A stretch of 63,381 bases of DNA, filler included, from Reclinomonas americana ATCC 50394 (lineage: Eukaryota): assembly GCA_048213135.1 (NCBI GenBank). It is 19 parts of 19 records of this genome, joined end to end, with 100 filler letters (N's around TTAATTAATTAA, not from the genome) between each part and the next. Parts side by side here need not be neighbours in the genome. Positions count along the whole stretch, not along the records: positions 45,981 to 49,407 come from AFZH01019522.1; positions 49,508 to 59,088 come from AFZH01019523.1; positions 59,189 to 61,226 come from AFZH01019531.1; positions 61,327 to 63,381 come from AFZH01019536.1; 15 more parts are not named here. One strand, given 5' to 3'. Made by a program: the position numbers and the translations under genes. Below, piece by piece: positions 41,845 to 63,381 of the stretch (the stretch's first letter is position 1; every line of letters begins with the position of its first letter). A model generated the notes under the pieces. It was not told where the DNA came from. It ran no database searches and was given only the letters and a program-made list of their open reading frames with translations.

Positions 41845-41944
41845 NNNNNNNNNNNNNNNNNNNNNNNNNNNNNNNNNNNNNNNNNNNNTTAATTAATTAA
41901 NNNNNNNNNNNNNNNNNNNNNNNNNNNNNNNNNNNNNNNNNNNN

Positions 41945-42331: not shown

Positions 42332-42335
42332 GTCG

Positions 42336-42489
42336 CCGTCATTCCGGGGCAGGCCGACAGGCTTGCGCCCGGAACCCATGAACACCGCGTCTCATCGTCA
42401 TGGTCAGGCTTGTCCCGACCATCCGCGTCTTCCTTCAAATGATGCGGTGTTCAAGACGTGGATGCTCGCCGCAAGGGCGAGCATGACGA
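42336..42489. repeat. Two REP-like intergenic palindromic elements between convergent genes
   Basis: CGTCATTCCGGG..CCCGGAACCCAT and CGTCATGGTC..GACCATCC..GGATGCTCGCC..GGCGAGCATGACG; the CGTC-headed hairpin layout resembles rhizobial REPs. Confidence 0.7.
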
Positions 42490-42522
42490 ACTAGAGATGT
42501 CTTCGCCTCAAGGACGACAGCG

Positions 42523-43371: not shown

Positions 43372-43418
43372 GATGCCGCCCTCGCTCGTCTCGCGCCTTG
43401 ACTGGGGAGGGGCGCGAG

Positions 43419-43438
43419 ATATTTTAAGCTTAAAGTAT
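43419..43438. promoter_or_regulatory. Palindromic operator in the divergent kynA/PLP-enzyme promoter
   Basis: ATATTTTAAGCTTAAAGTAT, with a perfect core TTTAAGCTTAAA, in a 97-nt intergenic gap; overlaps a possible TTGACT-N16-TATTTT promoter. Confidence 0.65.
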
Positions 43439-43468
43439 TTTGCCGGATCGGCAAGGTCACGGAGCAGG

Positions 43469-44683
43469 ATGATGGACCAGGTGACGACGGCTCCCGCGGG
43501 GCTCGGATTTCCGCCATTCGACCTTGCCGCCGAATTCTCGCGCTTCCGCCAGAACTGGCCCGCCAAGCTGCATTTCGCCGCCCATAGCCATCATTTCTGG
43601 CCGGACGCCACCCGCGAGGCGCATTTGCGCGCCTGGGACGATGCCGCCCGCCTCGTCGACGGCAAGTGGCAGGAGGTGCTGGGGCCGGTCTGGCAGAAGG
43701 TCGCGCAAGGCGTGGCCAAGCACTTGAACCTGCCTGGGATCGACGGCCTCGTTCCGGCCAACAACACCCATGAATTCGTCAACCGCTTGCTCTCCTGCCT
43801 GCCGCGCGATCGCAAGCCGCGCGTCCTGACCAGCGATGCCGAGTTCCACTCCTTCCGGCGCCAGATCGAGCGGCTCGCAGAGGACGGGCTGATCGAGTTG
43901 ACGGTCGTGCCTGCGGAGCCCTTCGCGGGCCTGGCGGAGCGGCTGATCGCGGCGGCGCAGCACGGTCCCGGCCCCGACATGGTCTTCGTCAGTCAGGTCC
44001 ATTTCAACTCAGGCTATGCGCTGACCGATCTGGAAACACTGGTCGACGGAGTCGCGGCACCCGGGCGGCTCGTCGTCATCGACGGCTATCACGGCTTCCT
44101 GGCGCGGCCGACCGATCTCTCGGGGATCGCCGACAAGGCCTTCTACATCGCCGGCGGCTACAAATACGCCATGTCGGGCGAGGGCGCCTGCTTCATGCAC
44201 TGCCCACCCGGCTTCGGGATGCGCCCGCGCGATACCGGCTGGTACGCCTCCTTCGGCGCGCTCTCGGGCGCGCAGGGCGAAATCGGCTATGCCCAGAACG
44301 GCTGGCGCTTCATGGGCGCGACCTTCGACCCTTCCGGCCTCTACCGTATGGGCGCGATGTTCGACTGGCTCGATGCCAAGTGCCTCGGCGTCGCCGCGAT
44401 CCACGCCCACACCCGTGCCTTGCAGGCGATCTTCGCCGAGGGGCTGGCGCGGCGGCCCTGCGGTGCGCTCGCTTTGGAGAATCTGGTCGTGCCGCCTGAC
44501 GAGCCGGCACGCGGCAATTTCTTGACCTTCCGCCATGCCGATGCGGCGCTCTGGCATGAGAAGCTGAAGCAGGCCGGCATCACCGTCGACCTGCGTGGTG
44601 ATCGCCTGCGGGTCGGTTTCGGGCTCTACCAGACGGAAGCCGATGTGAAGCTGCTGCTGGAGCGGCTGTTGACCTTGCGGTAG
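43469..44683 (+). CDS. Class V PLP-dependent enzyme, kynureninase-like
   Basis: TSDAEFHS, VSQVHFNSG, VIDGYH, GGYKY (PLP lysine), GWYA, GATFD, DLRGDRLRVGFGLY; divergent from kynA. Confidence 0.85.
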   Translation: MMDQVTTAPAGLGFPPFDLAAEFSRFRQNWPAKLHFAAHSHHFWPDATREAHLRAWDDAARLVDGKWQEVLGPVWQKVAQGVAKHLNLPGIDGLVPANNTHEFVNRLLSCLPRDRKPRVLTSDAEFHSFRRQIERLAEDGLIELTVVPAEPFAGLAERLIAAAQHGPGPDMVFVSQVHFNSGYALTDLETLVDGVAAPGRLVVIDGYHGFLARPTDLSGIADKAFYIAGGYKYAMSGEGACFMHCPPGFGMRPRDTGWYASFGALSGAQGEIGYAQNGWRFMGATFDPSGLYRMGAMFDWLDAKCLGVAAIHAHTRALQAIFAEGLARRPCGALALENLVVPPDEPARGNFLTFRHADAALWHEKLKQAGITVDLRGDRLRVGFGLYQTEADVKLLLERLLTLR

Positions 44684-44739
44684 GCTCCGCTCCCGATCAG
44701 CTATTGTGTGCTGGTCGATCGAACGGACGGAGCTGACGC

Positions 44740-45153
44740 ATGAAGACGCTGCCCGGCCTCGTGATCGCTGCCGTTCTCGCTTCCCTCGCTCCCGCGCTGG
44801 CGCAGGCTCCCGGCAAAGCCGTGGCTTCCACGGCCGTGCAAAAGGAGTTCGAGGACTTCATCGCAAAGTTCCGGGCAGCGCTGAAGGCGAATGATCCGGC
44901 CACCGTCGCCGCCATGACGAAGCTGCCCTATATGGGCGATGCTTCCATCGCCGAAGCCGCGCAGTTCCGCGCCAAGGTCTGGCCGAGCGATTTCAACGCG
45001 AAGAACCGCGCCTGCCTGCAGCGCACCAAGCCGGTCTATGACCGCGATGGCGCCAGGAACGAGGTCTACGCCATCGCCTGCGGCGGCAGCATCTTCACCT
45101 TCACCAGGACATCGGCCGGCTTCCAGCTCACGGATGTCGATATCGCCGATTAA
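44740..45153 (+). CDS. Secreted hypothetical protein
   Basis: RBS GGAG, signal peptide ending ALA, two Cys. Confidence 0.75.
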   Translation: MKTLPGLVIAAVLASLAPALAQAPGKAVASTAVQKEFEDFIAKFRAALKANDPATVAAMTKLPYMGDASIAEAAQFRAKVWPSDFNAKNRACLQRTKPVYDRDGARNEVYAIACGGSIFTFTRTSAGFQLTDVDIAD

Positions 45154-45173
45154 GTGGCGACATCGAATAATCG

Positions 45174-45878
45174 TCAGCGCTGCGCGGTGTCGACGCTGAC
45201 CACCACCGACATGCCGGGCGAGAGCCGCTCGGCCAGGCTCTGACCAGGATCGATCGCGATCCGCACCGGCACGCGCTGGGCGATCTTGACGAAATTGCCG
45301 GTCGCGTTCTCCGGCCGGATCACGCTGAACTCCGAGCCGGCCGCGGGCGAGAAGCGCTCGATCGTGCCGGTCAGCCTTGCATGGCGCAGGGCATCGACGG
45401 TGAAGGAGACCTTCTGGCCGATGCGCATGCCGGAGAGCTGGGTCTCCTTGAAATTGGCGATTACCCAGACCTGGCTCGGCACCAGCGCCATCAATTGCGT
45501 GCCGGCCGAGACGTATTGCCCGAGCCGGGCCGAGACCTCGCCGAGGCGTCCGTCCTGCGGCGCGGTGATCCGGGTGTTCTGCAGGTCGATCTCGGCCAGG
45601 TGGACGGCCGCTTCGGCGCCCTGGACCGCCGCTTCGAGCGATGCCTTGTTGACGATGGCGCTCTGCACGTCCTGCCGGGAGACGTCGACGGCGGCCTTGC
45701 TTGCCGTCAGCCCGGCGCGGGCCTGGTCGAGCGCCTGCAGACTCTGGTCGGCATTGGTCTGATTGACGACGCCACGCTCACGCAGCGGCTCGATGCGGCC
45801 CCAATTGGCTTCCGCCGTGCGCAGTGCGGCCTCGGCGCTGGCGACATTGGCTTCGCTGGCGCGCTGGCGTGCCTCGGC
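45174..45878 (-). CDS. HlyD/EmrA family membrane fusion protein (5'-truncated)
   Basis: TRITAPQDG, WVIANFKETQL, PAAGSEFS, NATGNFVKIAQRVPVRI, LSPGMSV. Confidence 0.93.
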   Translation of the reverse strand, partial: AEARQRASEANVASAEAALRTAEANWGRIEPLRERGVVNQTNADQSLQALDQARAGLTASKAAVDVSRQDVQSAIVNKASLEAAVQGAEAAVHLAEIDLQNTRITAPQDGRLGEVSARLGQYVSAGTQLMALVPSQVWVIANFKETQLSGMRIGQKVSFTVDALRHARLTGTIERFSPAAGSEFSVIRPENATGNFVKIAQRVPVRIAIDPGQSLAERLSPGMSVVVSVDTAQR

Positions 45879-46112
45879 GGNNNNNNNNNNNNNNNNNNNN
45901 NNNNNNNNNNNNNNNNNNNNNNNNTTAATTAATTAANNNNNNNNNNNNNNNNNNNNNNNNNNNNNNNNNNNNNNNNNNNNCCCCTTCTCCCTTCTCCTTT
46001 CCCCCTCACCCTTTCCTCCTTCTCCCTTCCCCCTTCACCCTTCACCCTTCCCCCTTTCCCCTTCCCCCTTCCCCTTCCCCTCACGCCCTTTCCCCTCCCT
46101 TCCCCCTCGCAG

Positions 46113-47899
46113 CTCCTGGGCACCAGCGCGGACCTCTTCCGCATGGTCCCCATGGCCGTCTTCGTCATTGTGCCCTTCATGGAGCTGCTGCTGCCAATCT
46201 GCTTGAAACTCTTCCCCAACATGCTGCCGTCGACCTTCGAGGACAAGCTGAAAAAGGAGGAGGATTTGAAGCGCGCGCTCAAGGCCAAGCTGGAGCTGGC
46301 CAAGTTCCTGCAGGACACGGTGGAGGAGATGGCGACGCAGATCAAGGGTCCGCGTGCCGCCGAGGCCGCCGCTCTCCAGTCCTTCATTGAGGCTGTGCGT
46401 GAGGGCAAGACCGTCTCCAACGAGGACCTGCTGCGCTTCTCGCCGCTCTTCTCCGACGAAATCACTCTCGACAACCTGTCGCGTCCGCAGCTGGTGGCCA
46501 TGGCGCGCTTCCTCGGCCTGAACGCCTACGGCGCCGACGCCTTGCTGCGTTTCCGTCTGCGCAGCCGCCTGCGCCAGATCAACTCGGACGACAAGCTGAT
46601 TTGGTGGGAGGGTGTGGCGTCGCTCTCGGTGGAGGAGCTGACGCAGGCGTGTCTGGACCGCGGCATCAACACCAAGGGTGTGGCGCGCGCCAAGTTGCAG
46701 CGGGAGCTGCAGGAGTGGCTCGAGTTGTCGAACCAGAAGAGCGTGCCATCCACGTTGCTCATCATGTCGCGGGCGTTTGCCTTTACCTCGAGGTACTCCT
46801 ACTCCATTCGCTCTTCCTCGTTTCTTTGATTCTCCCTCACCTACCCCCTTCTTGCAGCACCTTCCGCGCCCTGCAGGAGACCATTGGCTCGCTCCCCGAC
46901 GAGGTCGTCGACTCGGTGCTCAGTGCCGACAACGAAGCCAAGCGTCGCGAGTCGCGCCTGGAGGCCATTCAGCGGCAGGAGGAACTGATTGCGGAGGAGG
47001 ATGAGCAGAAGCGCAAGAAGGCCGCTGCCGAGCACCACCATGTGCTGACCGAGCAGGAGGCCGTGGCTGCGGCCAAGGAGGCCGCCGAGACCGCCGAGCG
47101 GCAGGCCGAGCAGGCAGCGCAGGCGGCCAGCCTTCCGCCAGTGCCGTCTGCCGTGGAGTCACCAGTGGTGTTGTCATCGTCGTCGTCGGCGGCGTCGACA
47201 ATGGCGGCGGCGGAGACTGCTCCGTCAACCACTGCCACCATCACGGGCGATGCGGTAGCGACGACGGCGTCGACAGAAGACGATGCTGACGAGGAGGTGA
47301 CACTGACAAAGATTCGCGAGATCAGCGAGGCTGTGTCGGTGCTGGCCGCCGCCAGCGCCACGCTGCGCGAGTCGACCGAGTTGGAGGAGCTGAAGCGCGA
47401 TCGTGCCGACCTGCTGGCCTCGCTGCTGGCCACTCGTCTGTACCCGGACGCCGCGGAGACGGTGGATCCGGAGCTGCGCAAGCTGGGCGCGCTGGATCAG
47501 AAGCTGTCGCGCATGATTGTGAAGCTCGACGAGGAGATTCGCGCCGTCGACCGCCAGATCGGCACCGGCCTCAACCTGCTCGACAAGGACCGCGACGGTA
47601 TTGTGACGGTGCAGGAGCTGCAAATGGTGCTGTCGCTGCTGCGTGACCGCCCGAGCGACGACAAGGTGGTGGCGTACATTGTCAGCCGGCTGGATCCGGA
47701 CGGTGACGGCCGCGTGGTGCTCACCGAGCTGGAGTCGGCCATTGATCGGCTGGAGATGATGGAGGAGGAGGAGATTGAGGAGATTGATGTGGAGCCAAAG
47801 CAGGCGGTCGTGGCGGCTGAGAAGAAGGAGGTGGAGAAGCCGAAGAGACGGACGAAGAAGAGCAGCAGCAGCAGTAAGGCCAAGTCGGCCGCAGAGTGA
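46113..47899 (+). CDS. LETM1: LETM1 mitochondrial inner-membrane protein with C-terminal EF-hands (5' exons missing; intron 46793-46857)
   Basis: ADLFRMVPMAVFVIVPFMELLLPICLKLFPNMLPSTF, KLELAKFLQDT, FSDEITLDNLSRPQLVAM, DDKLIWWEG, WLELS..VPSTLLIMSRAF; EF loops DKDRDGIVTVQE and DPDGDGRVVLTE. Confidence 0.95.
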
Positions 47900-48102
47900 T
47901 TTGTTGTTGTTGTCGTAAGTGTTTGCTTGTTTGTTTGTGTGTGTGTGTGTTAGTGTTGTTGTTGTTTGCGTGTTTATAGTCGGCAGCGATGATGATGTAG
48001 TGGGCAGCGTTTCGTACTCAATTAAAAGCTGCAGTTGATGGGCAAGAGAAGGGGAGAAAGGGGAAGGGAGAAGGAGAAGGGAAAGGGGAAGGGAGAGGAA
48101 GA

Positions 48103-48136
<34 letters not shown>

Positions 48137-48174
48137 CACATGCAAACTTGATCATCAAGGCAGCTTATGGACGA

Positions 48175-49180
48175 ACAAGAGACATGCTACGCGGCACAGT
48201 ACGCGTGTGCATGTTACGCCTCTCTCACGTGGAATGGTGTCGCCTGAGAGGTCGCCTAGTGGTGTTAGCAGCCTACGCGACTCTCGCAGTGTCCATCTAT
48301 CTGTGGTATGGAACGGGGCATTCCGGTGATTCTTGCGTTCCAGGCCGATAAGGGAGAGAGAGAGAGGGAGGGATACAAGATAGCTTTGAATGCTGATACT
48401 GGAATTGCATTGGTCACAACGTCGGCAAGGAGAGGATTTTGCTTTGGATACGACGTCGCCTTCTGCGAGTAGACAGCTGGTTACGCTGTTTGGTAATTGT
48501 GGGTTGTGGCGAGCGCTGTGCGTACAAAAACACGCCTGCGTGTCCTTCAGGTCCTGATCAATCACACGTGTTCCGCTCAACGCACAAGACCATGCTACGC
48601 GGCACAGTACGCGTGTGCATGCTGCGCCTTTCCCGCGTGGAATGGTGTCGCCTAGGCGGCCGCCTAGTCGTCCTCGCAGCCTATGCCACCCTCGCAGTGT
48701 CCATCTATCTGTACATGTGGTACGGGACGGGCATTCCGGGGATTCTGGCGTTCCAGGCCGATAAGGGAGAGAGAGAGAGAGGAGAGGGAGGGATGCAAGA
48801 CAGCTTTGAATGCTGATATTGGAATTGCATTGGTCACAACGTCGGCATGAAGGAGATTTCAATATCTGGATTCAACGATGCCTCCCATGAATACAAAGCT
48901 TGCTTCGCCGTTTGGTAATTGTGGGTTGTGGTGAGCGCTGTGCGTACAAAGAGACGGCTGCGTGTCCTTCACGAGTCCTGCAATCACTCACACGTGTGTG
49001 TTCCCTTCCTCTCGCGACAATGTTACGCGGCACAGTACGCGTGTGCATGCTGCGCCTCTCTCGCGTAGAGTGGTGCCGCCTAGGTGGTCGCCTTGTGGTG
49101 TTAGCAGCCTACGCGACCCTCGCAGTGTCCATCTATCTGTGGTACGGGACGGGCATTCCGGTGATTCTTGCGTTCCAGGC
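48175..49180 (+). repeat. Three tandem copies (period 408 and 428 nt) of the upstream region plus first ~53 codons of the DHHC gene
   Basis: ATGs at 48184, 48592 and 49020 each begin MLRGTVRVCMLRLS; the inter-copy spacers are also homologous. Confidence 0.92.
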
Positions 49181-50496
49181 AGAGAGTATGCATCATTATC
49201 TGTGTCTGGCGTGGGCGTGGACGCAAGCGCTGTTGGGAGTGCCGATCTTTGGGAACATTGTGGCAAATTACGCCTTGGCGATATGGACGGATGCGGGGAT
49301 GCCGGGAGGTGAGGGAAGGGAGTGAGAGGGAGGGAAGGGGGTGAGAGAGAGAGAGAGAGAGAGAGGGAATCGAAGAATGTGATTGTGTTCATGCACTTCA
49401 TCATTGTNNNNNNNNNNNNNNNNNNNNNNNNNNNNNNNNNNNNNNNNNNNNTTAATTAATTAANNNNNNNNNNNNNNNNNNNNNNNNNNNNNNNNNNNNN
49501 NNNNNNNTGAGTCCGAAAGGACTCTGTCGTTTCGCTGACTGCTTTTTCCTCTCCCCGCGCGTTTTAGCTCCCGCCTGGTGTCACCGTCGACGACTTGAAC
49601 ACTCTCCGCTTCCTGTTCATCCTGTCGTGCACATTCGGTGGCATTCTCGGCGGCCTCGGCGTGTGGCACACGTACTTGTTGCTGACGGGGCAGACGACGT
49701 TGGAGTGGGTGGTGAATCGGGAGCGCAAGGCGCATACACCAGTTGCGTGGAAGAAGGGGAGGGTGGGGGAATGGAGAGGGAGAGGGGTAAGGAGTGGGGG
49801 AGGGGAGAGGGAGAGGGAGAGAGGGAGAGAGAGAGAGTGTGTGTGAGAGAGAGAGGGAGCAGGTGGGTTGGCCTATCCGGCCTGGACGCGAAAAATATTT
49901 GTCGACAAGGACTGCAAGCCTTCATCTGGTTGTGGGCGTTGTAGTTGTATGAGAAAGTCACAGGGAGTTGCTGGCCTGCGACGGTGTTCGAATTGTGGTC
50001 CTGAGTGTGTGTGTGTGAGAGAGAGAGAATGGTGACGAACGAGGGGGCACGGATGAGGACGAAGGATGTGCATGCTGCAGAAAGACTGAGAGAGAGAGAG
50101 AGAGAGCGAGAGCATGAGCGTGTTTGCACGGACCGCGATGGGGGGTGAGAGAGGAAGAAGATGGAGTGAGCTGTACAGACTGACAGAAACAAGTGAGAAT
50201 GAGAGAGAGGTGAGGGAGGAGGAGAACGGGTGAGCAATAATGACTAATCGTTGCAACACCGCTTCGTCGCAGAGCTACCGCAATCCTTACGACCGCGGCT
50301 GGAGACGCAACTGTGAACTGGTGCTGGGTCCGATGCGCAAGTTGCGTGACAGCATACCTCGCTTACGGATCCGCTGTCATAAACTCACACTCCCCCTCCA
50401 CTCGCCTCACGCAGTTGGTGGTTGGTCTACTGGGTGCCCGGGTACCGCGTCGATCCGCCTCGGGGCTCATCGTACACCACCGAAGAGTACGTTTAG
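49020..50496 (+). CDS. DHHC palmitoyltransferase (ZDHHC16-like), multi-exon, spanning a linker that hides the DHHC domain
   Basis: Exon 49020-49308 has two TMs ending NYALAIWTDAG (DPG-like motif). After the gap come GLGVWHTYLLLTGQTTLE (TTxE), YRNPYDRGWRRNCELVLG and a final exon ending at TAG 50496. Joining across the gap is inferred. Confidence 0.75.
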
Positions 50497-50574
50497 GCGG
50501 CATGCGTCGACCGCAAACAAGATGATTTCCCAGTGTAGACATAGTGGGTTGCGTGGAAAGCACGATACGGGCAA

Positions 50575-51100
50575 CCAAGCAGCAGCAGGTGGTGTCTCGC
50601 AGGTATTGTAACCATCTCTGAAGACGTGAACGCCGACGTCGGAATGCAGCGGGTAGTCAAACAACAGCAGGTGGTGTCTCATCTCGGAGGACGTCGTCGC
50701 CGACGTCGGAATGCAACGTGCAATCAAGCAACAGCACAGGTATTACCACCATCTCGGCTGACGTGCCGACGTCGGATTGCAACCTCCTTTCTGCTCGCCA
50801 GAACCATAGATGACGTGCATGGCCAAGGGTGAGACTGCGCCTCCTGCGCTTCTCCGACGCCACGAGCAATCGTCGGCGTCGGAGCTGCAATGTCGAACTT
50901 GCTTCCTCGGCGTCTCTACCATCTCTGATGTCGTGCATGTCGCCGGAGAGCAGCAAGTTCCACTGTTTTGCCAACTTCGCCTACTGACCGTATCTCCACC
51001 ACCTCTGAAGTTGTGCACGTCGCGACGTGCGGCGACTGCTGCCGGTTGCAAATCGAGCTTTTCCCTTGTATTCGCTCCGTCTCCGAAGTTGCGTACATGC
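50575..51100. repeat. Degenerate tandem repeat containing three perfect CCGACGTCGG palindromes
   Basis: Palindromes at 50633, 50700 and 50766 (spacing 67 and 66); a related CATCTC(T/G)G..ACGT motif recurs to about 51100. Confidence 0.7.
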
Positions 51101-51205
51101 ATGTTGCAGCAGCAAGAGAGAGTTATGACAACTTCAATACCGAACTCGTGTCCTCTGAGGAACATTGCAAACGAACTCTTCCTTGAGCGCGTGTCTCTCA
51201 GTCTC

Positions 51206-54200
51206 ATGGCACTTGAGTCTCGTGGAGTCTTCCTCAACGCCACTGGAGAAGAGTGGCTTGCGCAGGACAGCGATGATGATGATGACGACGAAGGAACAAG
51301 CATGCAGAAGGCGCGAAAGAAGCCTTCTGCGGGTACAATGAGTGCGGAGCAAGTCTGGCAGCGCGTGCTCAATGTTGAGTGAGAGGAGAGAGAGAGGGAG
51401 AGGGAGGGAGGGAGGGAGGGAGGGGGGAAGAGAGAGACAAGTGCGTGCAAGTGTGTGCAAGTGTGTGCAAGTGTGTGTATGTGTGTGGAAGTGTGTGGAA
51501 GTGTGTGGAAGTGTGTGCAAGTGTGTGGAAGTGTGTGGAAGTGTGTGGAAGTGTGTGCAAGTGTGTGAGTGTGTGCGAGTGTGTGCAAGTGTGTGCAAGT
51601 GTGTGCGAGTGGTGTGCAAGTGTGTGCAAGTGTGTGGAAGTGTGTGGAAGTGTGCGCAAGTGTGTGGAAGTGTGTGCAAGTGTGTGGAAGTGTATGCGAG
51701 TGAGAGAATGACTGCAGATTGCAAATCAGTGACTGTTAACAGTGATTTTCCTGTCTCACTCACTCTCACCCTCTCTCTCTCTCTCAGTGGAACTGGAAAG
51801 ACGTTTTCCGCGCTGTTCTCCCCGACGATATCAACCGTGCAGACAACATTCAAGTTTTCTCATCCTTTTTTTTGTTATTGTTGTTATCAGTCTTCACTTG
51901 TCTCTCATCTCTTGTCGCCGGGAAACAGCTGGAGGGTCCTCTCGTGCTGCAAGTCGGTCGCATTCGCAATGTGACTGCGCCTGCGCATGCGCAGGATCGT
52001 GAGCCGGCACTGTTGCAGGTATCGTTGACCGATGGGCATATCATTACGCATGGAGTCTCGTATGGAAGGTTCGACGAGCAAGGAGGAGAGAGGGAGAGTG
52101 TTGACGGGCGTGACTCACTTGCGTTGTTTTGGTGTGCTGCATGCAGTCTCGGGAAAGAGATCACGTGAGTCGCTTGTGAGGGATGAGTCGCTTTTTCTTG
52201 TTGGTGCATCCCTCCTTGTCGCTCCTCTCGCTGCTCTCGCTGCTCTCGTTGCTCTCGCTGCTCTCGCTGCTCTCGTTGCTCTCGCTGCTCTCGCTGCTCT
52301 CGCTGCTCTCGCTGCTCTCGTTGCTCTCGCTGCTCTCGCTGCTCTCGCTGCTCTCGCTGCTCTCGCTGCTCTCGTTGCTCTCGCTGCTCTCGCTGCTCTT
52401 GCTGCTTACGCTGCTCTCGCTACTCTGGTTGCTCCCTCTTGCTAGCTGCTCACTCTCTCGCTCTCTCTCTCTCTCTCTCTCGCTCGCTCTTCGCTCCCCC
52501 TTTGCCTTCCTCACCAACTATCATGCTCCTGCTAGCATCAACACACCCCCCGGCACCAAGGTCGAGCTGCGGGGCGTGACGGTGCGAAATGGCACATTGT
52601 TGCTCACGCCGAGTTGCATCCGCGTGGTGGGCGGCCGCGTCAAGGATCTGTACGAGGCGTGGGCGTTGAAGCGGGTTTGTGTACATTGATTTGTGGCGTG
52701 TGCGTGCATGTCGTGCTGATCATGCGCGTGGTTGCCAGGAACACGGTCGACTTCGTGGTCACTTTTCCGTCAAGGCCGCCGAGGCGTACGAAGCCACAGC
52801 TGCGGCTGCGCAAGGAGCCAGTGGTTCGGCGGCGCCCGTGGCTGGTGGACCGCCGCCGTTCAAGCCCCTCCCCAAGGTGCGTCGTGCTCATAGGCTCTTG
52901 TTCTTCTTTTCATTCATCCTGTCGGCCGCGCAGGGCATGCTGGGGCGCAAGATTCCGCTCGCGCAAACTTCCTTTGTCGGCACCGGCTACCAGGGGCAGC
53001 GAAAGCCGCTCACGGTCAGGGAGGAAACGTGCAGGAGATTGTCCATCGCATGTTCGCCCCTCTCACCCGTCTTGCTGCAGGGCTGGAACGCCTCGGGCAG
53101 CAGCACCGAGCCTGGTGGCTCTGGCTTGGCGTCGACGACGCCCGCGCAGCCTGGGAAATCTGCGTCTGTGCCACCTCCGCCGCCGCCACCGTCGCGCCCC
53201 ACCAACAAACCAGCCGGAGGCAACGACCGTGATCACGACGACGATGATGACGATGACGGGGACGACGAAGGCAAGCGCCTTAGTGGCTCGGTGCGCGGAC
53301 CGCCCAGTGCACGCGGCAAAGTTGGTGCGCTCGAAGAGTTGTGTTTACTGTCGCACGCATGTGCACGTCGCTCACAGCTGTATTGCTGGCGCAGGTTTTG
53401 AGAGTCAGCGAGGGGGTCGTGGTGGTCGCGGTGGTGAGTGAAGAGGGGAAGGGCGACAAGTTGTGAGGGTAGAGAACAAGAGCAGGCGCTTTCCGATTGG
53501 AGGAAGGGGACAATAAGTCGAGGGACGCAGAGGGAGAAAGCATGTGAGGGACGCGGAAGGAGATAGGCGGTGAGGATCGCAGAATGAGAAAATCTGTGAG
53601 AACAGAGAACGAGTATGGCAGCGAGGATCGCAGAAGGAGAGAGCCAGTGAGTAGCAGAGAAGGAGTACGATATTTATGAAGGCAGAAGACAAAATCTGTG
53701 GAAGCCTGTGACGAGGAACAGAGAAGGCGAAAGGGAGTGAGGAGAAGCCGGCGACGGATGAGGGGATGAGGGAGAAGAAGAAAGAAAGTTGATTACTTAC
53801 CGGCGTGAGAGCCAGGAGAGGACAAAGAGAGTTGGTCGTGTCGAGTGAAGGAGACAGAACTGAGTGGATTCCGTCGCAAGGCAGTTGGTTGCTGACCTCA
53901 TTCTTTCAGGTCGAGGTGGCCGTGGACGCGACCGTCCATTCAGTGCTGATTACCGAGGCGGAGCGGTGCAGCGTTTCGTATTTTCCTGCGAATGTACCTG
54001 CTGTGAATCATGACTCACTATATGCACACGCAGTGACAATGCAGGAGCATGCGAATTACTGTTGCGTCGCTTGGAATCGAGGAACACTCTGTATGCTGTG
54101 TTGCTCATCTCTCCGATAACAACAACAGCGACCCTCGAGTCCATGGGCTTTGTGGATCGCGATCAGTCCGCCGAGGCTCTGCGGAGGGCCGATGGCAACC

Positions 54201-57200
54201 TGCAGCAGGCGATCGAGCTGCTCGTCAGCGGCGCGGTGGTGCGTGTTTCCTTGGCATGACCTTATACAAAGCATGCTGACTGATGGCGTCTTACCGCAGC
54301 CGGAGGGTCCACAGATTGGCGCTTTCGACGGTGGCGACGACGACGACTTTGGCGTCGAGGATGACGGTTACTTGGGCGGATCGGGACGGGGTGGGCGTGG
54401 CGGGCGCGGTCAGAGATTCGAGCGGCGGCCGCGAGGAGGTGGCGGTGGTCGAGGTGGACTTGGTGGAGGTCGGCAGGAGTTTGACGGTGGGCGGCGACCA
54501 CAGTCGGCGCCGTATGCGCGAGATGATGAGGGGGCGGTGAGGCGGAAGCGGGGGAGAAGGGGTGGAGAAGAAAAGCAGTGATTGACACATTGCGTAGCAG
54601 CAGGCTCGCCCTGGTGGTGCACCGCGGCCTCCTCCTCCTCCGCCGCCGCCTCCTCCTCCTCCTCCCTCGAAGCCGGCGGCTCCGCCTCCGTCGTCGTTGG
54701 ACGCGGGGCGTGCGCTTGATTTGAGCGCTGCGGCATTTGTTCCGCGGAGATCTGATGTGCCGTCGCTGATTCAGGAGATGGTGAGTCGTTAGAATACGGC
54801 GTTTGTGTAGCAGCAATCTCAGTGCCGTGGTCGGTAGGCTGCGGCAAGCAATCAGTTTCAGCAATCGAGTCGGAGAGGTGCGTGCGTGGTGGAGGGTGAA
54901 TTCGATTTTGGCGTGCTTTGTTGAGATCTTGATGCGTTTTTTAATGTGACAAGGTGGCCGAGGCGGTCAGCATCACGAAGGCAAGTGTTCATGAGGGGGT
55001 TCGATGCGTAACTTCAACTTTTGCAACTCACTTCCCACGTTGTGCAGGCGGACGAGGCGGCCAGCAGTACCAAGGTGTGTAGTCGCCTGCTTTCAGAACC
55101 GAAGTCAACGCTTACCCTCTGCTCGTTGCGAAGGTGAACGAGGCGGTCAGTACCAACATGGTGAGCTGCCCGACAGTTTTCGATACTCTCCTTGTTGAAA
55201 CTAGTCTTTCTGTGTGGCGCAGGTGGACGTGGTGGTCAGCACTACGAAGGTGTGCAGTCGTCTGCTCGCAGCATATCTCACTTGTCTACTCTCACATTCG
55301 GCTTGTTGCAAAGGTGGTCGAGTAGGTCAACATTTCGAGGGTGAGCTGCTGCTGACGACCACAACACCGCCTCCTTGTCGAAACTTACCTTTCTCTGTGG
55401 CGTAGGTGGACGTGGCGGTCAGCACCAACGTGGTGAGTGCTTCTCGCTCATCAAGGCGGCTTTCACTTTCGTCTCTCACTGACGTGACAGACGACCGACC
55501 AGGAGCGCAACAGCAGCAGGGAGGAGCACCGCGGCCGCAGAGTTGCGTTGCTTGTGTTTTGTGTATTCCAGGTACGGGTGCTGAGTGTTGGCGACAGTTG
55601 CTGGTGCACCGCCGCCGCCACAACAACAAGAACAGCAGCAGCATCAAGGAGGTGGAGGAAACCGCGCCCCCCGGCCACAGAGTTGCGACTGTGTGGCCTT
55701 CATTGTTGCTTTGTGTGTGGGTTGCTTAGTGTCTGTGACAGGTGCTGGTGCTCCGCCGCAGCAGCAACAGCAGGCACCACCGCAGCAGCAACCACCACAG
55801 CAACAGCACCAGCAACAGCAGCAGCAACAACATGGAGGAGGAAACCGCGCTCCCCGGCCACAGAGTTTCGATAAGTGGCCTTGATTCCTGCTTTGTGTGT
55901 GGTTTGCTTAGTGTCTGTGTCAGGTGCTGGTGCGCCGCCGCAGCAACAGCAAGCGCAGCCGCAGCATCAAGGAGGTGGAGGTCGCGCTCCTCGACCAGAG
56001 AGTTACGTCTGATTGGCCTTGCGTGCCACACTGTGTGTTGCTTGCTGAATGTCGGCGATAGGTGCTGGCGCGCCGCCGCAGCAGCAACAGCAGGCACCAC
56101 CGCAGCAGCAGCAGCAGCAGGGAGGAGGAAACCGCGCTCCCCGGCCACAGAGTTACGACTGCATGGTCTTGATTGTTGCTTTGTGTGTGGGTTTCTTAGT
56201 GTCTGTGTCAGGTGCTGGTGCGCCGCCACCGCCACCTCCACAGCAACAGCAGCAGCAGGGAGGTGGAGGTCGCGCTCCTCGACCACAGAGTTGCGTCTGA
56301 GTGGTTCGTGCATGACATTGCGTGCTGGATACTCACTTCCGCCTCTCGTAGGTGCTGGTGGGCCTCCGCAGCCGCATTCACAGCAGCAACCAGCGATCAA
56401 CGTTCAAGAAGCTCAATTGCCGCAGCAAGGTTTGTGGTAAGAAGGGTGAATCCGAGATGCGTCCTTGTGAATTGACGGGCGATTGCAGATCGTGGTGGCG
56501 GTCGTGGTGGTCGCGGCGGGCGTGGTGAGACTGGGCGTTGATGATCATGTTCTCGGTTGTCGTTTTTCACACCGTGTGTACAGGTGGGCGTGGAGGCCAG
56601 CATCATCAAGGTTGATCTTGTTGCGTGTGTATGTGCGCTCTTGGTGAGACGCTCATCCCTTCGCACAGGTCGCGGTGGTGGTGATGGCGGTCGCAGCGAG
56701 CTGCAACAGCCGCAACAAGCAGGTCTGTCCGTGTTTCTCATGATGCACATGCTGCTCTGCAGTGACATTATGTCGTTGTTTCTCCAAAGGACGCGGTGAC
56801 CAGCAGCCACAGCAGCAACGACAAGGAGGTCTATCCGTGTCTCTCATGATGCGCATGCTGCTCTGCAGTGACATTATGTCGTTGTTTCACCACAGGACGC
56901 GGTAACCAGCAACCACAGCCACAACAAGCAGGTTCGTCCGTGTCACTCATGATGCACATGCTGCTTGCAGTGACATAATGTCGTTGATTCTCCGCAGGTC
57001 GCGGTGACCAGCAACCACAGCAGCCACGACAAGGAGGTTTGTGTGCGACAACCGCAATGTTTTCCGTGGTTTGCTCACTCACTGTTCTGGGTTTCGTGCA
57101 GGACGAGGTGGTGAGCAGTAGTAGCAGCGCATGCACACCTAATGGCGACGCAGATTAGCAAAGTCCTGACCGGAGAACGATGCACACAAGTACCGTAGTG

Positions 57201-57649
57201 TCACACAACAGCCTGCACAGCAGAGAATCAGCAATCACATCGTCACACAGCACAGCTCACGCGTGTGTTGTGTGTCATGGATTCATTGTTCTTGATTTCA
57301 TGCAGGGCGTGGTGGTGACCAGCAGTCACCGCAGAATTCGGGTTTGTGCCGTGTGTGCGTGCTTCGTGTGTTTCAGTGCCCGATCTTACCGCTTTCGCGC
57401 CACAGGTCGTGGAGGCGGTGGTCATGGCGGAGGCAAGTGTGGTTGTTGTTCCGCCTGTGCGGTCCTCAAACTCAAGGAGTGTACTTGCAGGTCGTGGTGG
57501 GCGAGATTGGCTGCCATCTCAGCCAGCGCCAGAGCAGCAAGGTGGGATCGCAGGTGCATGGAAGAGAGGAGTGCGATTGTTTGACATGCGGTTTCTTGTG
57601 CATAGGCGCGGCGGGATCATCGCAGGCGGGTCGGCGTGCAGAGTTTTGA
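51206..57649 (+). CDS. TDRD3: TDRD3-like protein: RMI1-type OB fold, UBA domain and long RGG/Q-rich tail; highly fragmented into exons
   Basis: Spliced peptides VLPDDIN, LEGPLVLQVGRIRNVTAP..LQVSLTDGH, INTPPGTKVELRG..NGTLLLTP..VVGGRV..LYEAWALKR, GGPPPF and UBA LESMGF..AEALRRADGNLQQAIELL follow TDRD3 order. No Tudor domain was recognised. Confidence 0.8.
51440..51695. repeat. 10-bp minisatellite GTGTGTG(C/G)AA in TDRD3-like intron 1
   Basis: About 25 tandem units read directly. Confidence 0.92.
52225..52430. repeat. 9-bp minisatellite G(C/T)TGCTCTC in a TDRD3-like intron
   Basis: About 22 tandem units; produces spurious ALA/LLS/SES ORFs. Confidence 0.92.
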
Positions 57650-58696
57650 GTGGGCGTGGAGAGAGAGTGGAGCGACAACAATAGTACTTTCTCCAACAAA
57701 GGCTTTCTAATGTTTTTGTCCAGCGTGTGTGCTTTTGAGCAGCTTTTTCTTGTGCGCAGGCGGGACGGCGTGCAGAGTTCTGTGTTGTTTGCAGCAGCAG
57801 CAGCAGCAACAACAACAACAACAACAACACACTGCACGGCAGTAACTGCTGACACTGGCTCTGCTTTCACGCAACCAGCATGTCTTGCACGTTCTTCCCC
57901 TCCACCGCCATCACTGACATAATGACGACAACGACAACACTGTGTCTGTGGTCAACGTCGCCTTCAACCCACAGTCCTCTTGTCTCGGTCATCGGTCAGT
58001 GGCTGCCTTGTTGAAATCACTCCTGCTGCAACAACAATGACAGCAACAATAACAGCTGAGCATGCCGCCTGCTCATGCCACCACCAATACGAGCCTCACC
58101 AAACCCATGACTGGCTCTCTTTTGTTCAACCACACCACAAATGACGACGCCTCCGCTGCTTTGCTATGCTCGCATCACGGATTCGGACCGGCTTGGCTTC
58201 GTTTGCCTTCCCGAATTCGCTGTGCCGTGTATGATCGCGATCTGCCCGACAAGTCGGCTGCTGCTCGGTTTCCGGCCATATATTGACAGGAATTGGCTGT
58301 TTCGCGCCTTTCCTTCTCTGACGCTGCATCCGGTATCAGATCCACGGCAAATCGTATATGCGAAATCCTTTCGAGGCCAACACGCGTTTGATTAGCTTTG
58401 CCTCCAAAGGGAAGATGACTGTTAGAGAAGAGTAGTTGTGTGTTTTGCATATTGTTGGTGTGCCAAGGTCATCGGCAAGGTATTTGTGGGCGTTTGTCGC
58501 ATTCCAATGGAATGTGGTGAATGTGTATTTTGTTGTTGAATCTGCCCGACATTCCCGACAAACACGACCTACCCGACAGCCTTGACAACATTTCGACGGG
58601 ACACGCTTCATTCCCGGCTATTTCTGACAAGTCTATCTTTGCACACACACACTCATTTTATCTTTGCCTTCTGAGCGAACGCCACCTCCCTCATTG

Positions 58697-59088
58697 ATGT
58701 GGGCCAACTCTGACCCTTATTCTGCTCCCCCGCTGGCGTTGGCGCTCGCGAATGTCCCGCTGAGCGCACACAAGTTGATTGAGCCTGCGGCCGGGAGGAG
58801 AGGCTTCAAGCCCTCGAAGCGCAACCTGCGCGCTGTTGCGACGCGATGGATGTCAGCGTGCATGGAGGTGTGGCTGTGTGTGTGTGTGTGTGAGAGAGAG
58901 AGCATGGATGATTCACCTCTCTCTCTCTCTCTCTCTCCTTCATCAATAGTACTGGTCCCTGCAGCTGGACGAGGCTGATGCGGAGGAGGCGGTGACTGAG
59001 GCGCTCAAGGCGCTCTCTTCTGACAGGCGATATGTGCGGACCGACCTGGCCGCTCACTTTGGCATCCGCAACCAAGACCTCTTCAACT
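58697..59088 (+). CDS. Hypothetical eukaryotic gene, first two putative exons (3'-truncated)
   Basis: MWANSDPYSAP..SACME, a GT..CAG microsatellite-containing intron, then in-frame LDEADAEEAVTEALKAL.. Confidence 0.5.
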
Positions 59089-59441
59089 NNNNNNNNNNNN
59101 NNNNNNNNNNNNNNNNNNNNNNNNNNNNNNNNTTAATTAATTAANNNNNNNNNNNNNNNNNNNNNNNNNNNNNNNNNNNNNNNNNNNNGGCAAAGGTGTT
59201 TTCTTTAGTCTTATAGTGCGTGCGGCTTCCACGTCTTCTTCTCCTCTCATTATGCAGCAGCTGGACTTCACCCCTTGAAGCACGGAGAAGTGCGACGAGA
59301 GGAGCGAGCATGCGTTGGAGAGGAGTAGTGAGATGGAGTCGTCGACGGTGATGTTTAATGGGTCGGGTGGCGGTGTACAGTGCCGTGATTGAAACGAGGC
59401 AAAGGTGTTTTTCGTGTTTTACATAACACTTTCTCCTCCCG

Positions 59442-60533
59442 TCACAAGGCACCCTCTAGAAAGCATCGACGATCAACAACCTCCGCCTCCTCGACCAGGA
59501 AGCAGCGCAGTACGATCTCCACCAAGCACCACCGATCCTCCTCTTCTTCTGCCTTCTCCTCGGCCTCCTGCACGGCGCACATGGCCCGACGCGCCGTGTC
59601 GAGCTCCTGCCGCGCGAGGCCGTACGGCGTCGACCACACGCGCACGGACTTGTCACGACTGCCACTCACAATGCACTGACCGTGGGGGGCGACGGCGACG
59701 CACAACGCCGTAGCCGTGTGTCCCTCCAGCCGACGCACCTCCTCTCCACTCGCCAGCGACCACACGCGCACCGTGCCATCTTCGCTGCCGCTCACAACGT
59801 GCCGGCCATCGGCGGTGACGGCGACAGATATCACTCTCTCCGTGTGTCCACTCCACCGTCGCACCTCCTCGCCCTCCTCGCCACCCGTTGCCAGCGACCA
59901 CACACGCACAGTCTTGTCGAAACTGCCGCTCACGACGTGCCGGCCGTCGGGCGTAAAGGCGACAGATATCACTCTCTCCGTGTGTCCACTCCACCGTCGC
60001 ACCTCCTCGCCCGTCGCCAACAACCACAGCCGTACACTCTGATCGCCACCTCCGCTCACCACGTGCACCCCGTCGCGGGTGATGGCGAGCGTGTTTACAA
60101 AGTGCCTTGGTGGCCACTCCAATCGCCGCACTTCCTCTCCACTCGCCAGCGACCACACTCGCGCAGCAGCTGGACATCCGCTCACCACGTGCTGCCCGTC
60201 GGGAGTGACGGCGACTGCAAACACATAACGCTCGTGTCCCTCCAATTGCCGCACTTGTTCTCCACTCGCCAGCGACCACACTCGCACAATCTTATCCGCG
60301 TGTCCACTCACAACATGCTGCCCGTCGGCACTAAAGACCACGGACAGCACCCTGCCACGGTGTCCCTCCAGTCGTCGCACCTCGTCGCCACTCGCCAGTG
60401 ACCACACACGAATGGTGGTGTCGAAGCTGCCGCTTGCAACGTGCTGACCGTCGGGAGAGACGGCGATGCAATACACGTCGACGGTGTGCCCCAGCAGGCT
60501 TTTGCAGGGGAGAGTGGGGGGCGGAGAGGTCAT
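59442..60533 (-). CDS. Intronless WD40 repeat protein (7 repeats plus acidic C-terminal tail)
   Basis: Seven GH..V..V..PDG..VVSG..D..VRVW units; likely start MTSPPP at 60533. Confidence 0.92.
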   Translation of the reverse strand: MTSPPPTLPCKSLLGHTVDVYCIAVSPDGQHVASGSFDTTIRVWSLASGDEVRRLEGHRGRVLSVVFSADGQHVVSGHADKIVRVWSLASGEQVRQLEGHERYVFAVAVTPDGQHVVSGCPAAARVWSLASGEEVRRLEWPPRHFVNTLAITRDGVHVVSGGGDQSVRLWLLATGEEVRRWSGHTERVISVAFTPDGRHVVSGSFDKTVRVWSLATGGEEGEEVRRWSGHTERVISVAVTADGRHVVSGSEDGTVRVWSLASGEEVRRLEGHTATALCVAVAPHGQCIVSGSRDKSVRVWSTPYGLARQELDTARRAMCAVQEAEEKAEEEEDRWCLVEIVLRCFLVEEAEVVDRRCFLEGAL

Positions 60534-60775
60534 GGGGAAGAGAGAAGAGGAGGAGAAGAGCAGAAGCAGCACACAGTGCACGCTCGAGCTCGAGAGACTG
60601 ATATGATTGCAATGGCCGGATTGGGACAAAGAAGTCGAAGTTGAGCGATCCATGTTGGGTACATTGACAGGCAGAAGCACCCAGCTACATAAACGTAGCG
60701 CAACAAGAAACACAAAGAGACAACAACAGAAAAGGAAATCCTCTCCCACTCTGCTTCCCAGAATTCTCTATCTCG

Positions 60776-61226
60776 TCACAGACGGAGACTATCGTCCGCG
60801 GCACATCGATTGACGATGACTTCGGCCTCCTCGACCAGGAAGCAGCGCAGTACGATCTCCGCCAGGCACCGCGGATCTTCTTCATCCTCGTCTTCCTCGC
60901 CCTCCTGAAGCATCTCCTGCACGGCGCGCATGGCCGTCTTCGCGCATGCAAGCTCCTCTCTCGCTAACGCGTATGGCGTGGACCACACGCGCACAGAGCC
61001 ACCATAACTCCCGCTCATAATTCGCTGACCATCGGGGGTTACAGTGACAGTGCGCACCGGCGCAGTGTGTCCCTCTAGCCGTCGCCATTCAGCTCCACTC
61101 GTCACTGACCACACTCGCACTGACTGGTCATAGCTCCCGCTTACAACGTGGCGACCGTCACACGTGAACACAACCGACATAACCCACGAAGTGTGTTCAA
61201 ATCGCTGCATCTCTCGCCCACTCTCG
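60776..61226 (-). CDS. Paralogous WD40 repeat protein (5'-truncated)
   Basis: Two WD repeats and the same tail VRVWSTPY.LAR.EL..CL.EIVLRCFLVEEAEV. Confidence 0.88.
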
Positions 61227-61326
61227 NNNNNNNNNNNNNNNNNNNNNNNNNNNNNNNNNNNNNNNNNNNNTTAATTAATTAANNNNNNNNNNNNNNNNNN
61301 NNNNNNNNNNNNNNNNNNNNNNNNNN

Positions 61327-62422
61327 AGGAGAAGGAGAAGATGGACTGAGTGAGAGAGGTTGTGCTGCAACAACAAGTGTAGCCGGCGCAATACCGCAAT
61401 CCAATTTGTGATAGTTGTTGTTAGACATACTGAGGTTTCTGAAGTAGAACGATCAGGAGCCAACTCATTTCAATCTCGTCGTCTCCAATCGTTCTACTTT
61501 TATTTGCTTGTTCTGAGCATAGGCAATACATTGTAGCATTCAGACTTTTCGTCTCTCTCATCGCAAGTCCACCACTCCACCCGCCCACCACCATGTCTCT
61601 TGCCCCCATTTGTTGGTGACTGATCGTCACGGAAGAAAGTACATGCGCACCACTCGCACTCAACCGACCAACAAACTCCTCGCACAAACACACTCGCCCA
61701 CCGCGAATGAGCACATGGGTACCCGACTGGGATCTCGCTGAAGACATCATCGCACCCTCCATGGCCGAACGACGCGCCTCATCCTCGTCAGCAGCAGCTC
61801 GTCTCGCAGTCGCTGATGCACTGTTTGGCGCCTCAGAAGAAGCAGAAGGAGAAGAAGATGATGGACTGAGTGAGTTTGTGCTGCAACAAGTGTAGCCGAC
61901 GCAATACCGCAATCCAATTTGTACATGCGCACTCCTGCTCAACCGACCAACAAACTCCTCACACACAAGCCCACCGCGAATGAGCACATGGGTACCCGAC
62001 TGGGATCTCGCTGAAGACATCATCGCACCCTCCATGGCCGAACGACGCGCTTCCTCTTCATCAGCAGCAGCTCGTATAGCAGTCGCTGATGCACTGTTTG
62101 GCGCCTCAGAAGAAGCAGAAGGAGAAGAAGATGATGGACTGAGTGAGGCTGGTGCTGCAACAAAAGTGTAGCCGACGCAATACCGCAATCCAATTTTGTA
62201 CATGCGCACTCCCGCTCAACCGACCAACAAACTCCTCACACACTCGCCCACCGCGAATGAGCACATGGGTTCCGGACTGGGATCTCGCTGAAGACATCAT
62301 CGCACCCTCCATGGCCGAACGACGCGCTTCCTCTTCATCAGCAGCAGCTCGTATAGCAGTCGCTGATGCACTCTTTGGCGCCTCTGAAGAAGCAGATGAT
62401 GATGGACTGAGTGAGGTTGTGC
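61327..62422 (+). repeat. Tandem copies (period 273 and 277 nt, plus a partial copy at the contig start) of a gene's upstream region and first ~56 codons
   Basis: ATGs at 61707, 61980 and 62257 each begin MSTWVPDWDLAEDIIAPSMAERR; a 3' remnant of another copy lies at 61327-61410. Confidence 0.92.
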
Positions 62423-62580
62423 TTGCGGGAGGTGATCATGTGCGCCCCGAGTCCGCTGCGCGTGTGCGTGCTGCGCGGGAGTGGGTGGGCGGGAGTGGGT
62501 TGTTTGGTGAGTTTCTGCGAGTGGCGCCGGTGTTGGCGGGCGCGCAGACGGCGATGGAGACGGAGCAGAGAGTGGCGATG
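62257..62580 (+). CDS. First exon of a possible histone deacetylase-family gene
   Basis: RPESAARVRAAREWVGGSGLFGEFLRVAPVLA..VAM followed by GTGAGA resembles the HPE.P.R..GL..P..A..VH start of HDAC domains; the remainder is not in the window. Confidence 0.45.
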
Positions 62581-62659
62581 GTGAGAAGGGGAGGAGAAGG
62601 GGAGGAGAAGTGGGGGTGGAGGGGAGGAGAAGTGGGGGAGAATGTGAATTCGCACATTT

Positions 62660-63381
62660 GTTGGGCAAGATGGGTGTGTGTGTTTTCGAGTGTTTGTGTG
62701 TGTGTGAGTGTGGGAGAGAGAGAGAGTGAGAGAGAGTGAGTGTGTGGAAGAGAGAGAGAGTGTGTGTGAGATAGAGCGTGTGTGTATTTGTGTCAGAGAG
62801 TCTCTCTCCTCACTCTCTCTTGCTTGTGTGTGAGTGAGAGTGTGAGTGTGTGTGAGAGGTAGTGTGTGTGTGAGTGTGTGTGAGGGAGTGTGTGTGTTTG
62901 AGTGAGTGTGTTAGTGTGTGTTTGTGTCAGAGAGATCTTCTCACTCTCCTCGCGCTTTCTTGCTTGTGTTTGAGCGAGTGTGAGTGAGTGTGAGTGCTAG
63001 AGTGTGTGTATGAGTGTGTGAGAGTGTGTGTCTTTGAGTCTGTGAGCGAAGGCGTTTGTGTCAGAGAGATCTCGTCTTCTTTTTTTTCTCTTGTCTCCTC
63101 TCTCCCTGTCTCTCTCTTCCTCCCTCACTCGCTTGTGTGTGAGTGAGCAAGAGAGATAGAGATAGAGAGTGAGAAGGAGTCGGACATCAGTCGTGTTTGT
63201 GATCTTTGTTGTCATATCTTGTCATCTCACAACCTTCTGTGTAAGCCATCCCTCTCTCTCTCTCCCTCACTCCCTTCCCCCTCACCCTTTCCCCTTCATT
63301 CCCTCCCCCCTCACATCTTCTTCACTCCTCTCTCTTTGTGTGAGCCTGCCCTTGAACATCTCTTTCTCTCTCTCTCTCTCT
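62660..63381. repeat. GT/GA/CT microsatellite-rich tract, probably intronic
   Basis: Continuous dinucleotide low-complexity sequence. Confidence 0.85.

Follow-up and report, generated by a model that had tools for sequence, protein, structure and literature searches.

Partial duplicates make up 21–76% of young duplicates in several animal data sets, according to the passages of Katju 2012 that treat them (PMC3449122). The partial duplicates with recruitment described in the same passages, which are common among young duplicates, retain the 5′ flank with no more than the initial portion of the open reading frame (ORF), have their breakpoint inside the ORF, and take new codons and a stop from flanking non-coding DNA. 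Some 5′ partial duplicates are reported there to encode truncated proteins that act on their parent, as does SRGAP2C (458 amino acids (aa) plus 7 unique residues, dominant negative), and Makorin1-p1 is given there as carrying the 5′ 700 bp of its parent; a functional partial duplicate is reported in Triticeae (PMC6092874). Here we analyse a 63,381-nucleotide (nt) stretch of DNA (the window) from Reclinomonas americana ATCC 50394 (assembly GCA_048213135.1), in which two loci, called locus 1 and locus 2, carry head-to-tail copies of the 5′ end of a gene. Two other kinds of arrangement bear comparison. UGT1A and the clustered protocadherins have tandemly duplicated alternative first exons with their own promoters, each of which runs to a canonical donor that splices it to a separate constant exon, and tandem duplication of exons, with or without their introns, inside genes is a general phenomenon. 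We read both arrays as real, multi-round tandem partial duplications of promoter-proximal DNA and the first ~53–56 codons, and the substitution pattern indicates that at least one truncated copy, copy 2 of locus 1, has been held under protein-level purifying selection together with conserved upstream blocks.

At locus 1, Tandem Repeats Finder (TRF) reports a repeat at 48171–49180 with a period of 422 nt, 2.4 copies and 81% matches. An (AG)17 microsatellite (48103–48136, also found by TRF) lies just upstream of copy 1 and is followed by a 42-nt diverged leader, after which the segments B1 (48184–48345), A1 (48346–48591), B2 (48592–48758), A2 (48759–49019) and B3 (49020–49180) succeed one another before unique coding sequence runs to a donor. 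Copy 1 (48184–48351, plus strand, as are all units at both loci) is a 55-aa ORF whose homology with the gene start extends to 48345; its last ~10 codons are out of frame owing to a 1-nt insertion near codon 44, it is without the conserved upstream blocks described below, and it is probably decaying. Copy 2 (48592–48816) is an intact 74-aa ORF in which 55 codons match the gene start, with 53 identical residues and a 2-codon in-frame insertion, and in which an 18-codon recruited tail then passes through a GA repeat; its product has a hydrophobic anchor-like stretch. The last copy (49020–49308, 96 codons plus 1 nt) is the first coding exon of the presumed full gene and ends GGAG/GTGAGG, with the slash marking the cut, at a donor at 49309; the contig stops in the following intron at 49407. 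GC content by codon position in this copy is 0.59/0.48/0.68. Homology among the copies ends after ...TTCCAGGC, at 48345, at 48758 and, in the last copy, at 49180. Each inter-copy segment begins with GA-rich sequence, and in the last copy the homology boundary is followed by AGAGAG; these GA-type repeats flanking the unit would be a possible source of microhomology for the duplication.

At locus 2, the TRF repeat covers 61651–62396 with a period of 277 nt, 2.7 copies and 93% matches. Copy 0 is cut by the contig start and retains the final 28 nt of its coding part and its tail (61327–61413), so the copy number of four is a minimum. A unique 227-nt spacer (61414–61640) sits exactly at the unit junction that follows. 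Unit 1 (61641–61922) has a 66-nt leader, a 62-aa ORF at 61707–61895 (shared part to 61874) and a 48-nt tail, and unit 2 (61923–62199) has a 57-nt leader, a 63-aa ORF at 61980–62171 (shared part to 62147) and a 52-nt tail. Unit 3 (62200–62580) opens with a leader of 57 nt and goes on into the presumed full gene's first coding exon (62257–62580, 108 codons), which ends ATG/GTGAGA at a donor at 62581; a repeat-rich intron then reaches the window end. The shared coding part measures 159–168 nt per unit and homology ends about 12 nt past GGACTGAGTGAG, beyond which the unique run-on part of the last copy has GC by codon position of 0.79/0.56/0.69. The tails carry insertions or deletions (indels) of 1–4 nt between copies, and the products of copies 1 and 2 (62 and 63 aa) are acidic. 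An antisense 264-codon open frame (61424–62215, minus strand) spans two units and the spacer and shares its third positions with the plus frame.

The sequence-only reading had proposed head-to-tail units of upstream DNA plus about 55 codons at both loci, and TRF and the ORFs together bear this out. Every unit consists of non-coding DNA followed by an ATG-started ORF, the frame runs on in the last copy only, and the shared coding spans are similar at the two loci (53–56 codons). Over the shared parts, residue identity between copies is 43/45, 44/48, 53/55 (with a 2-aa insertion), 55/56, 53/56 and 52/53 (with a 3-aa gap), gaps uncounted, and the copies differ by 7–19%. The truncated copies continue for 6–18 recruited codons into the upstream DNA of the next unit, with 9 shifted codons in locus 1 copy 1, and the recruited-tail DNA shows indels that are not multiples of 3. 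The plus-strand frames have a coding-like GC1>GC2<GC3 profile, as do nearby EF-hand and WD40 ORFs. These features identify the truncated copies as apparent partial duplicates with recruitment, in which the ATG and the N-terminal coding part are kept and non-coding DNA is then read to a stop.

Other elements of that first reading survive in part. Its statement that one layout occurs twice within about 17 kb in unrelated genes is correct in that the products of locus 1 and locus 2 are unrelated to each other; the loci lie on separate contigs (45981–49407 and 61327–63381), so "17 kb" is a concatenation coordinate rather than a measured distance. Its view of the last copy as the real gene agrees with the fact that only the last frame runs on, with coding-like GC, to GTGAG donors at 49309 and 62581; with no homologue found in the searches given below, the last copy is presumed to be the full gene from its ORF extension and splice-like signals. 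Two corrections concern the copies themselves: locus 1 copy 1 is frameshifted, and locus 2 has an extra, cut fourth copy.

Both arrays match the passages on partial duplicates with recruitment (PMC3449122) in each of the features given there, namely 5′ flank plus first ORF part, a breakpoint inside the ORF, and new codons and a stop from non-coding flanks. They differ from typical partial duplicates in having gone through several rounds, giving three to at least four head-to-tail units of 277–422 nt, in having the breakpoint inside an exon, and in having one truncated copy with long-term purifying selection (synonymous divergence, dS, ~0.5), where ancestral and derived copies are unpolarised. 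As described for SRGAP2C and Makorin1-p1 (PMC3449122), a 5′ partial duplicate here combines a putative promoter and an N-terminal part with a short unique C-terminus; unlike those cases, the products are far shorter (55–74 aa), the parents are orphans with no known domain, and the copies are known from sequence alone. We assign the structure to this known kind, partial duplicates with recruitment, and not to an undescribed general system.

The claim that the copies keep the protein sequence is upheld by the substitutions. Pairwise Nei–Gojobori omega, the ratio of non-synonymous to synonymous divergence (dN/dS), is 0.02–0.08 at locus 1 (codons 1–40) and 0–0.06 at locus 2 (codons 1–45), far from the value near 1 that the sequence-only reading had named as a refutation of its proposal. 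Synonymous and non-synonymous differences at locus 1 stand at 12.5:3.5 between copies 1 and 2 and at 14:1 between copies 2 and 3 (codons 1–40); over 53 codons the latter pair gives 15:2. Variable sites fall at codon positions 1/2/3 in the ratio 4/1/16 at locus 1 (16 of 21 at third positions) and 1/0/9 at locus 2 (9 of 10). When changes were placed at random with a matched spectrum, 7.9 synonymous changes were expected at locus 1 and 3.6 at locus 2, compared with 19 of 22 (P<1e-5) and 9 of 11 (P=7e-4) observed.

We then asked which copies carry this signal, using unpolarised branch tests. At locus 1, copy 2 gave the strongest result: its 10 nt changes fall in 9 codons and alter no aa over codons 1–40 (P=5e-6). 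Copy 3 of the same locus had 6 nt changes and no aa change (P=0.0024), and copy 1, with 6 nt changes and 2 aa changes, shows no such signal (P=0.17). At locus 2, copy 3 had 4 nt changes without an aa change (P=0.0011), copy 1 had 6 with one aa change (P=0.03, marginal), and copy 2, with no nt or aa changes, was uninformative. A clock argument gives the same picture for locus 1 copy 2: were about 8 of its 10 synonymous changes placed on its own branch, ~20 non-synonymous changes would be expected under neutrality and none is seen, so polarity does not rescue neutrality for this copy. Its synonymous divergence is ~0.5, set beside 2 replacements and the 2-codon in-frame insertion over the 55-codon shared part. 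Two of the three coding indels are in frame (6 nt and 9 nt), and the third is the 1-nt frameshift in the neutral-looking locus 1 copy 1; between A1 and A2, all 7 indels have lengths not divisible by 3. Indirect selection, acting through gene conversion into the functional copy, was considered as a source of the constraint and rejected on the argument that conversion at a rate high enough for selection to act would make the copies uniform as well.

The non-coding DNA between the copies is conserved in blocks. A1 and A2 align with 206 matches, 36 mismatches and 7 indels (7, 4, 2, 2, 4, 2 and 2 nt) and are 85% identical overall in a mosaic: ~96% identity over the first 90 nt past the boundary, a diverged patch, a block at ~95–98%, and a diverged leader. 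In A1 these correspond to a first conserved block (48346–48435) that is ~96% identical to A2, a variable patch, a second conserved block (~48487–48549) that holds the intron-like stretch described below, and a variable 41-nt leader; A2 forms the region upstream of the last copy. The conserved blocks (~95–98%) are present in A1 and A2 and not upstream of copy 1, and their putative role is that of a promoter or of an intron in the 5′ untranslated region (UTR). Since the decaying copy is the one without these blocks, units 2 and 3 have the look of complete expression modules. A 58-nt GT..AG intron-like stretch (48493–48550 and 48915–48975) is ~95–98% conserved between units while its flanks are diverged; it has the local intron size and style, is better conserved than adjacent synonymous sites, and is possibly a 5′-UTR intron with a regulatory role. 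Just after the start codon, the first ~25 nt are invariant in all three copies (48187–48213, 48595–48621 and 49023–49049), including the palindrome ACGCGT, and all synonymous changes fall in the next 60 nt. Searches of the conserved blocks for structured RNA gave nothing in Rfam at the gathering score and nothing, or one sub-threshold hit, at E<=1, and no tRNA was found there.

We tentatively prefer, without holding it with any great confidence, a reading of the copies as stand-alone truncated N-terminal proteins. Locus 1 copy 2 would be transcribed from its own upstream blocks and translated as a short N-terminal paralogue of 74 aa, and locus 2 copies 1 and 2 may perhaps likewise be stand-alone short proteins.

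Several observations weigh against this reading. The strong branch-specific signal comes from one truncated copy only, locus 1 copy 2, and the marginal signal of locus 2 copy 1 (P=0.03) stems from 6 changes within 10 codons, 3 of them in a run of Ser codons, where slippage or a single conversion may mimic several synonymous changes, so that one or two events could account for them. At locus 1, codons 3–10 and 34–40 are invariant and the changes all lie in codons 11–33, a clustering that points to a mosaic history or nucleotide-level constraint. Synonymous divergence at locus 1 (pS 0.29–0.41) exceeds the mean non-coding divergence (0.15), an excess that either constrained upstream blocks or a mosaic history would explain. 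Constraint stops exactly at the homology boundary with the parent: the recruited tails of locus 2 differ by frameshifting indels and the tail of locus 1 copy 2 crosses a length-variable GA repeat, and constraint limited in this way would be no less expected of first exons, or of variation passed down from functional copies. Neither product has a homologue in Pfam, a word-indexed protein search, HMMER (an exhaustive search of 1.84 billion representatives), PDB or metagenome loci. Pfam recognised no domain in three exon products, and contigs of bacterial metagenome-assembled genomes yielded only two short matches (46% over residues 14–42 and 62% over residues 3–23), which we take as chance.

The assembly from which the arrays were read bears on the alternatives. 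The window consists of 19 contigs of 1269–9581 nt each, joined by 18 identical synthetic 100-nt linkers (44 N, TTAATTAATTAA, 44 N) at sites within 1841–61326, for example 49408–49507 and 61227–61326; features or distances that cross a linker are not physical. A six-frame-stop linker of comparable general type, not identical in sequence, has been used for contig concatenation (bioRxiv 10.1101/2023.02.08.527609). All eight contigs in 16912–36000 match a single contig (G001:C55) of a 6.4-Mb bacterial genome at 95–100% identity and are colinear with it, with gaps of 5–20 kb between successive contigs. Those at 36001–45880 resemble them in GC (0.63–0.66) and, judged by GC alone, are probably bacterial too, and neither the contigs at 1–16811 nor the two loci match the 6.4-Mb genome. 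Roughly one third of the window is bacterial, and the sample is mixed, with bacterial DNA interleaved with eukaryote-like contigs. Four eukaryote-like contigs (45981–63381) host both loci and have GT..AG introns of ~56–75 nt and many GA and GT microsatellites.

The reading next in probability treats the units as alternative promoter and first-exon modules, with the N-terminal exon of each unit spliced into the last copy near the homology boundary so that all copies encode the N-terminus of the same full-length protein. Such an arrangement would explain a constraint equal to that of the last copy and ending at the homology boundary, as well as the conserved upstream blocks, and it would resemble UGT1A and the protocadherins in its head-to-tail units of promoter and first coding exon upstream of a shared gene body, with coding constraint on all first exons. 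The boundary itself offers splice-like material: at locus 1 the acceptor-like sequence TTCTTGCGTTCCAG/GC stands in the last copy and CAG/GCCGAT at the homologous point of the truncated copies, and on a reading of the sequence a GC-AG cut there would restore the parental frame exactly. At locus 2, 4 of 4 copies have GTGAG 5 nt short of where the shared part ends. Against it, and unlike UGT1A and the protocadherins, the boundary lies inside the exon of the last copy and has no canonical donor. In locus 1 copy 2 the sequence that runs from the boundary up to the stop contains no GT; a nearby GTGATT, seen in copies 1 and 3, corresponds to GGGATT here, and only a poor GC donor remains. The internal GTGAG at locus 2 has phase 1, against phase 0 for the donor that closes the exon at 62581, and the only in-frame acceptor seen there (GGGAG/GT) is of the weak GAG type. 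All 12 acceptors read in the region are YAG or AAG. We regard splicing of this kind as doubtful, if worth keeping in view. We also regard as unlikely that the truncated copies are neutral relics, whose synonymous-only differences were inherited from diverged functional copies, either by unequal crossing-over or conversion among divergent haplotypes, homeologues or unseen paralogues, or because strain variants were threaded into a true, younger array. The mixed sample and very fragmented assembly favour such a history, as do the clustered, mosaic differences (6 changes in 10 codons in locus 2 copy 1, strong divergence in codons 11–33 of locus 1) and the fact that constraint ends at the parent boundary and leaves the tails unconstrained. 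Inheritance from alleles is difficult to reconcile with pS 0.29–0.41 at locus 1, which is far above the allelic diversity known for any species, and no second homologue of either gene start was found within the window. Moreover, both versions of the locus 1 junction carry linked variants within ~12–17 nt of the junction. Two diverged truncated units therefore exist as molecules, and the 12.5 synonymous and 3.5 non-synonymous differences between them arose when they were already truncated, unless each was overwritten from outside.

The same junctions speak to the reality of the arrays. A haplotype or strain "stutter" in the assembly, with no real tandem array, could be suspected where the locus 2 array touches the contig start and where the assembly is as fragmented and mixed as it is here; we consider a pure artefact very improbable. 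With copies diverged by 7–19%, the arrays would not have been created or confused by repeat collapse, the junctions where a coding end meets the upstream DNA of the next unit show no similarity able to give false overlaps, and at both loci the junction recurs in diverged form within one contig. Unit junctions are homologous between successive units and exist in two diverged versions at locus 1, so this array would be hard to produce by mis-assembly. At the other extreme, the sequence-only reading had favoured a dedicated, genome-wide mechanism that multiplies gene 5′ ends into micro-ORFs and thereby yields promoter multiplication, uORF (upstream ORF) control or dominant-negative micro-proteins. 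Two cases in ~17 kb of eukaryote-like contigs, similar coding spans of 53–56 codons and a non-neutral substitution pattern are what such a mechanism would give. The sample is nevertheless n=2, 16.8 kb of contigs at 1–16811 contain no array, the arrays that accompany the two loci lie inside genes, the loci themselves have different unit sizes, junction types and flanks, and one copy (locus 1 copy 1) is decaying. To such a mechanism we give next to no credence, and we see no support for dedicated "stuttering" machinery; the recurrent general system once suggested reduces to two loci on separate contigs, one truncated copy with strong evidence, and other tandem modules that lie inside genes.

Those modules also suggest how the arrays arose. 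Tandem units of 100–450 nt occur inside genes on the eukaryote-like contigs at 55038–55447, 55579–56304 and 56706–57039 (exon plus intron), and as WD40 repeats at 59445–61226. Gene starts are thus not visibly singled out, and the generating process looks generic. The tandem exon and intron duplication seen at 55579–57039 shares the unit size class (~100–450 nt) and the contigs with our two loci and differs in that internal modules keep one frame by splicing, whereas both loci take in a start codon with its upstream DNA and offer no way of threading the copies into one ORF. We propose that the arrays originated in several rounds of a generic process of short tandem duplication, driven by unequal exchange or by slippage during replication at GA-type or other short microhomologies, in which gene starts were included by chance.

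Other accounts of the two loci were tried and set aside. Locus 1 as a DHHC-type membrane protein continuing into the next contig, suggested by a TTxE-like motif, had no support from Pfam, PDB or protein search, and the locus 1 exon does not join in frame, as a phase-1 first exon, to an open segment at 49568. A minus-strand gene in the open frames at 48158–48871 and 61424–62215 was rejected in view of the missing coding GC1/2/3 structure; at locus 1, plus-frame third positions are minus-frame second positions. A single ORF threaded through all copies as an internal repeat protein was rejected: locus 1 copy 2 offers no GT before its stop once past the boundary, a cut at the one phase-compatible donor would take away most of the exon, and the next unit does not conserve the open frame that begins at 48390. 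Transposon or gene capture was dismissed after no terminal inverted repeats were found.

The surrounding contigs carry further features. Directly upstream of locus 1, on the same contig, a 498-codon open frame (46403–47896, plus strand) has an EF-hand pair (PF13499, E=7.8e-8) and no other recognised domain. A Q/G/R-rich (Q/RGG-rich) gene at 55038–57130 (plus strand) has small exons of ~40–90 nt, introns of 56–75 nt and tandem exon plus intron modules of 106, 138–150 and ~180 nt. Two adjoining WD40-repeat genes at 59445–61226 (minus strand) are paralogues with repeats 72–78% identical in DNA; the first matches Pfam WD40 at E=2.6e-68 and the second is cut by the contig end. Short-period arrays of CAAGTGTGTG (26.6 copies) and TCGCTGCTC (24 copies) lie at 51438–51702 and 52219–52495, and TCGCTGCTC is open in several frames and rich in Leu, Ser and Ala.

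One locus with strong evidence and one with weak evidence, both read from an unverified assembly, make up the case. A broader view, that in this repeat-prone eukaryote microhomology-driven duplication of upstream DNA and the first ~55 codons is a recurrent route to small genes at many genes, retained through purifying selection like locus 1 copy 2 and producing decoy or anchor mini-proteins or extra promoter and first-exon modules, seems to us improbable. Partial duplicates are usually dismissed as pseudogenes, and here a 5′ gene fragment would be a clean natural example of retention, whether as a small protein or as an extra promoter and first exon. If such units prove frequent in the genome, they would make a good system for studying the birth of small genes or alternative promoters from short tandem duplications.

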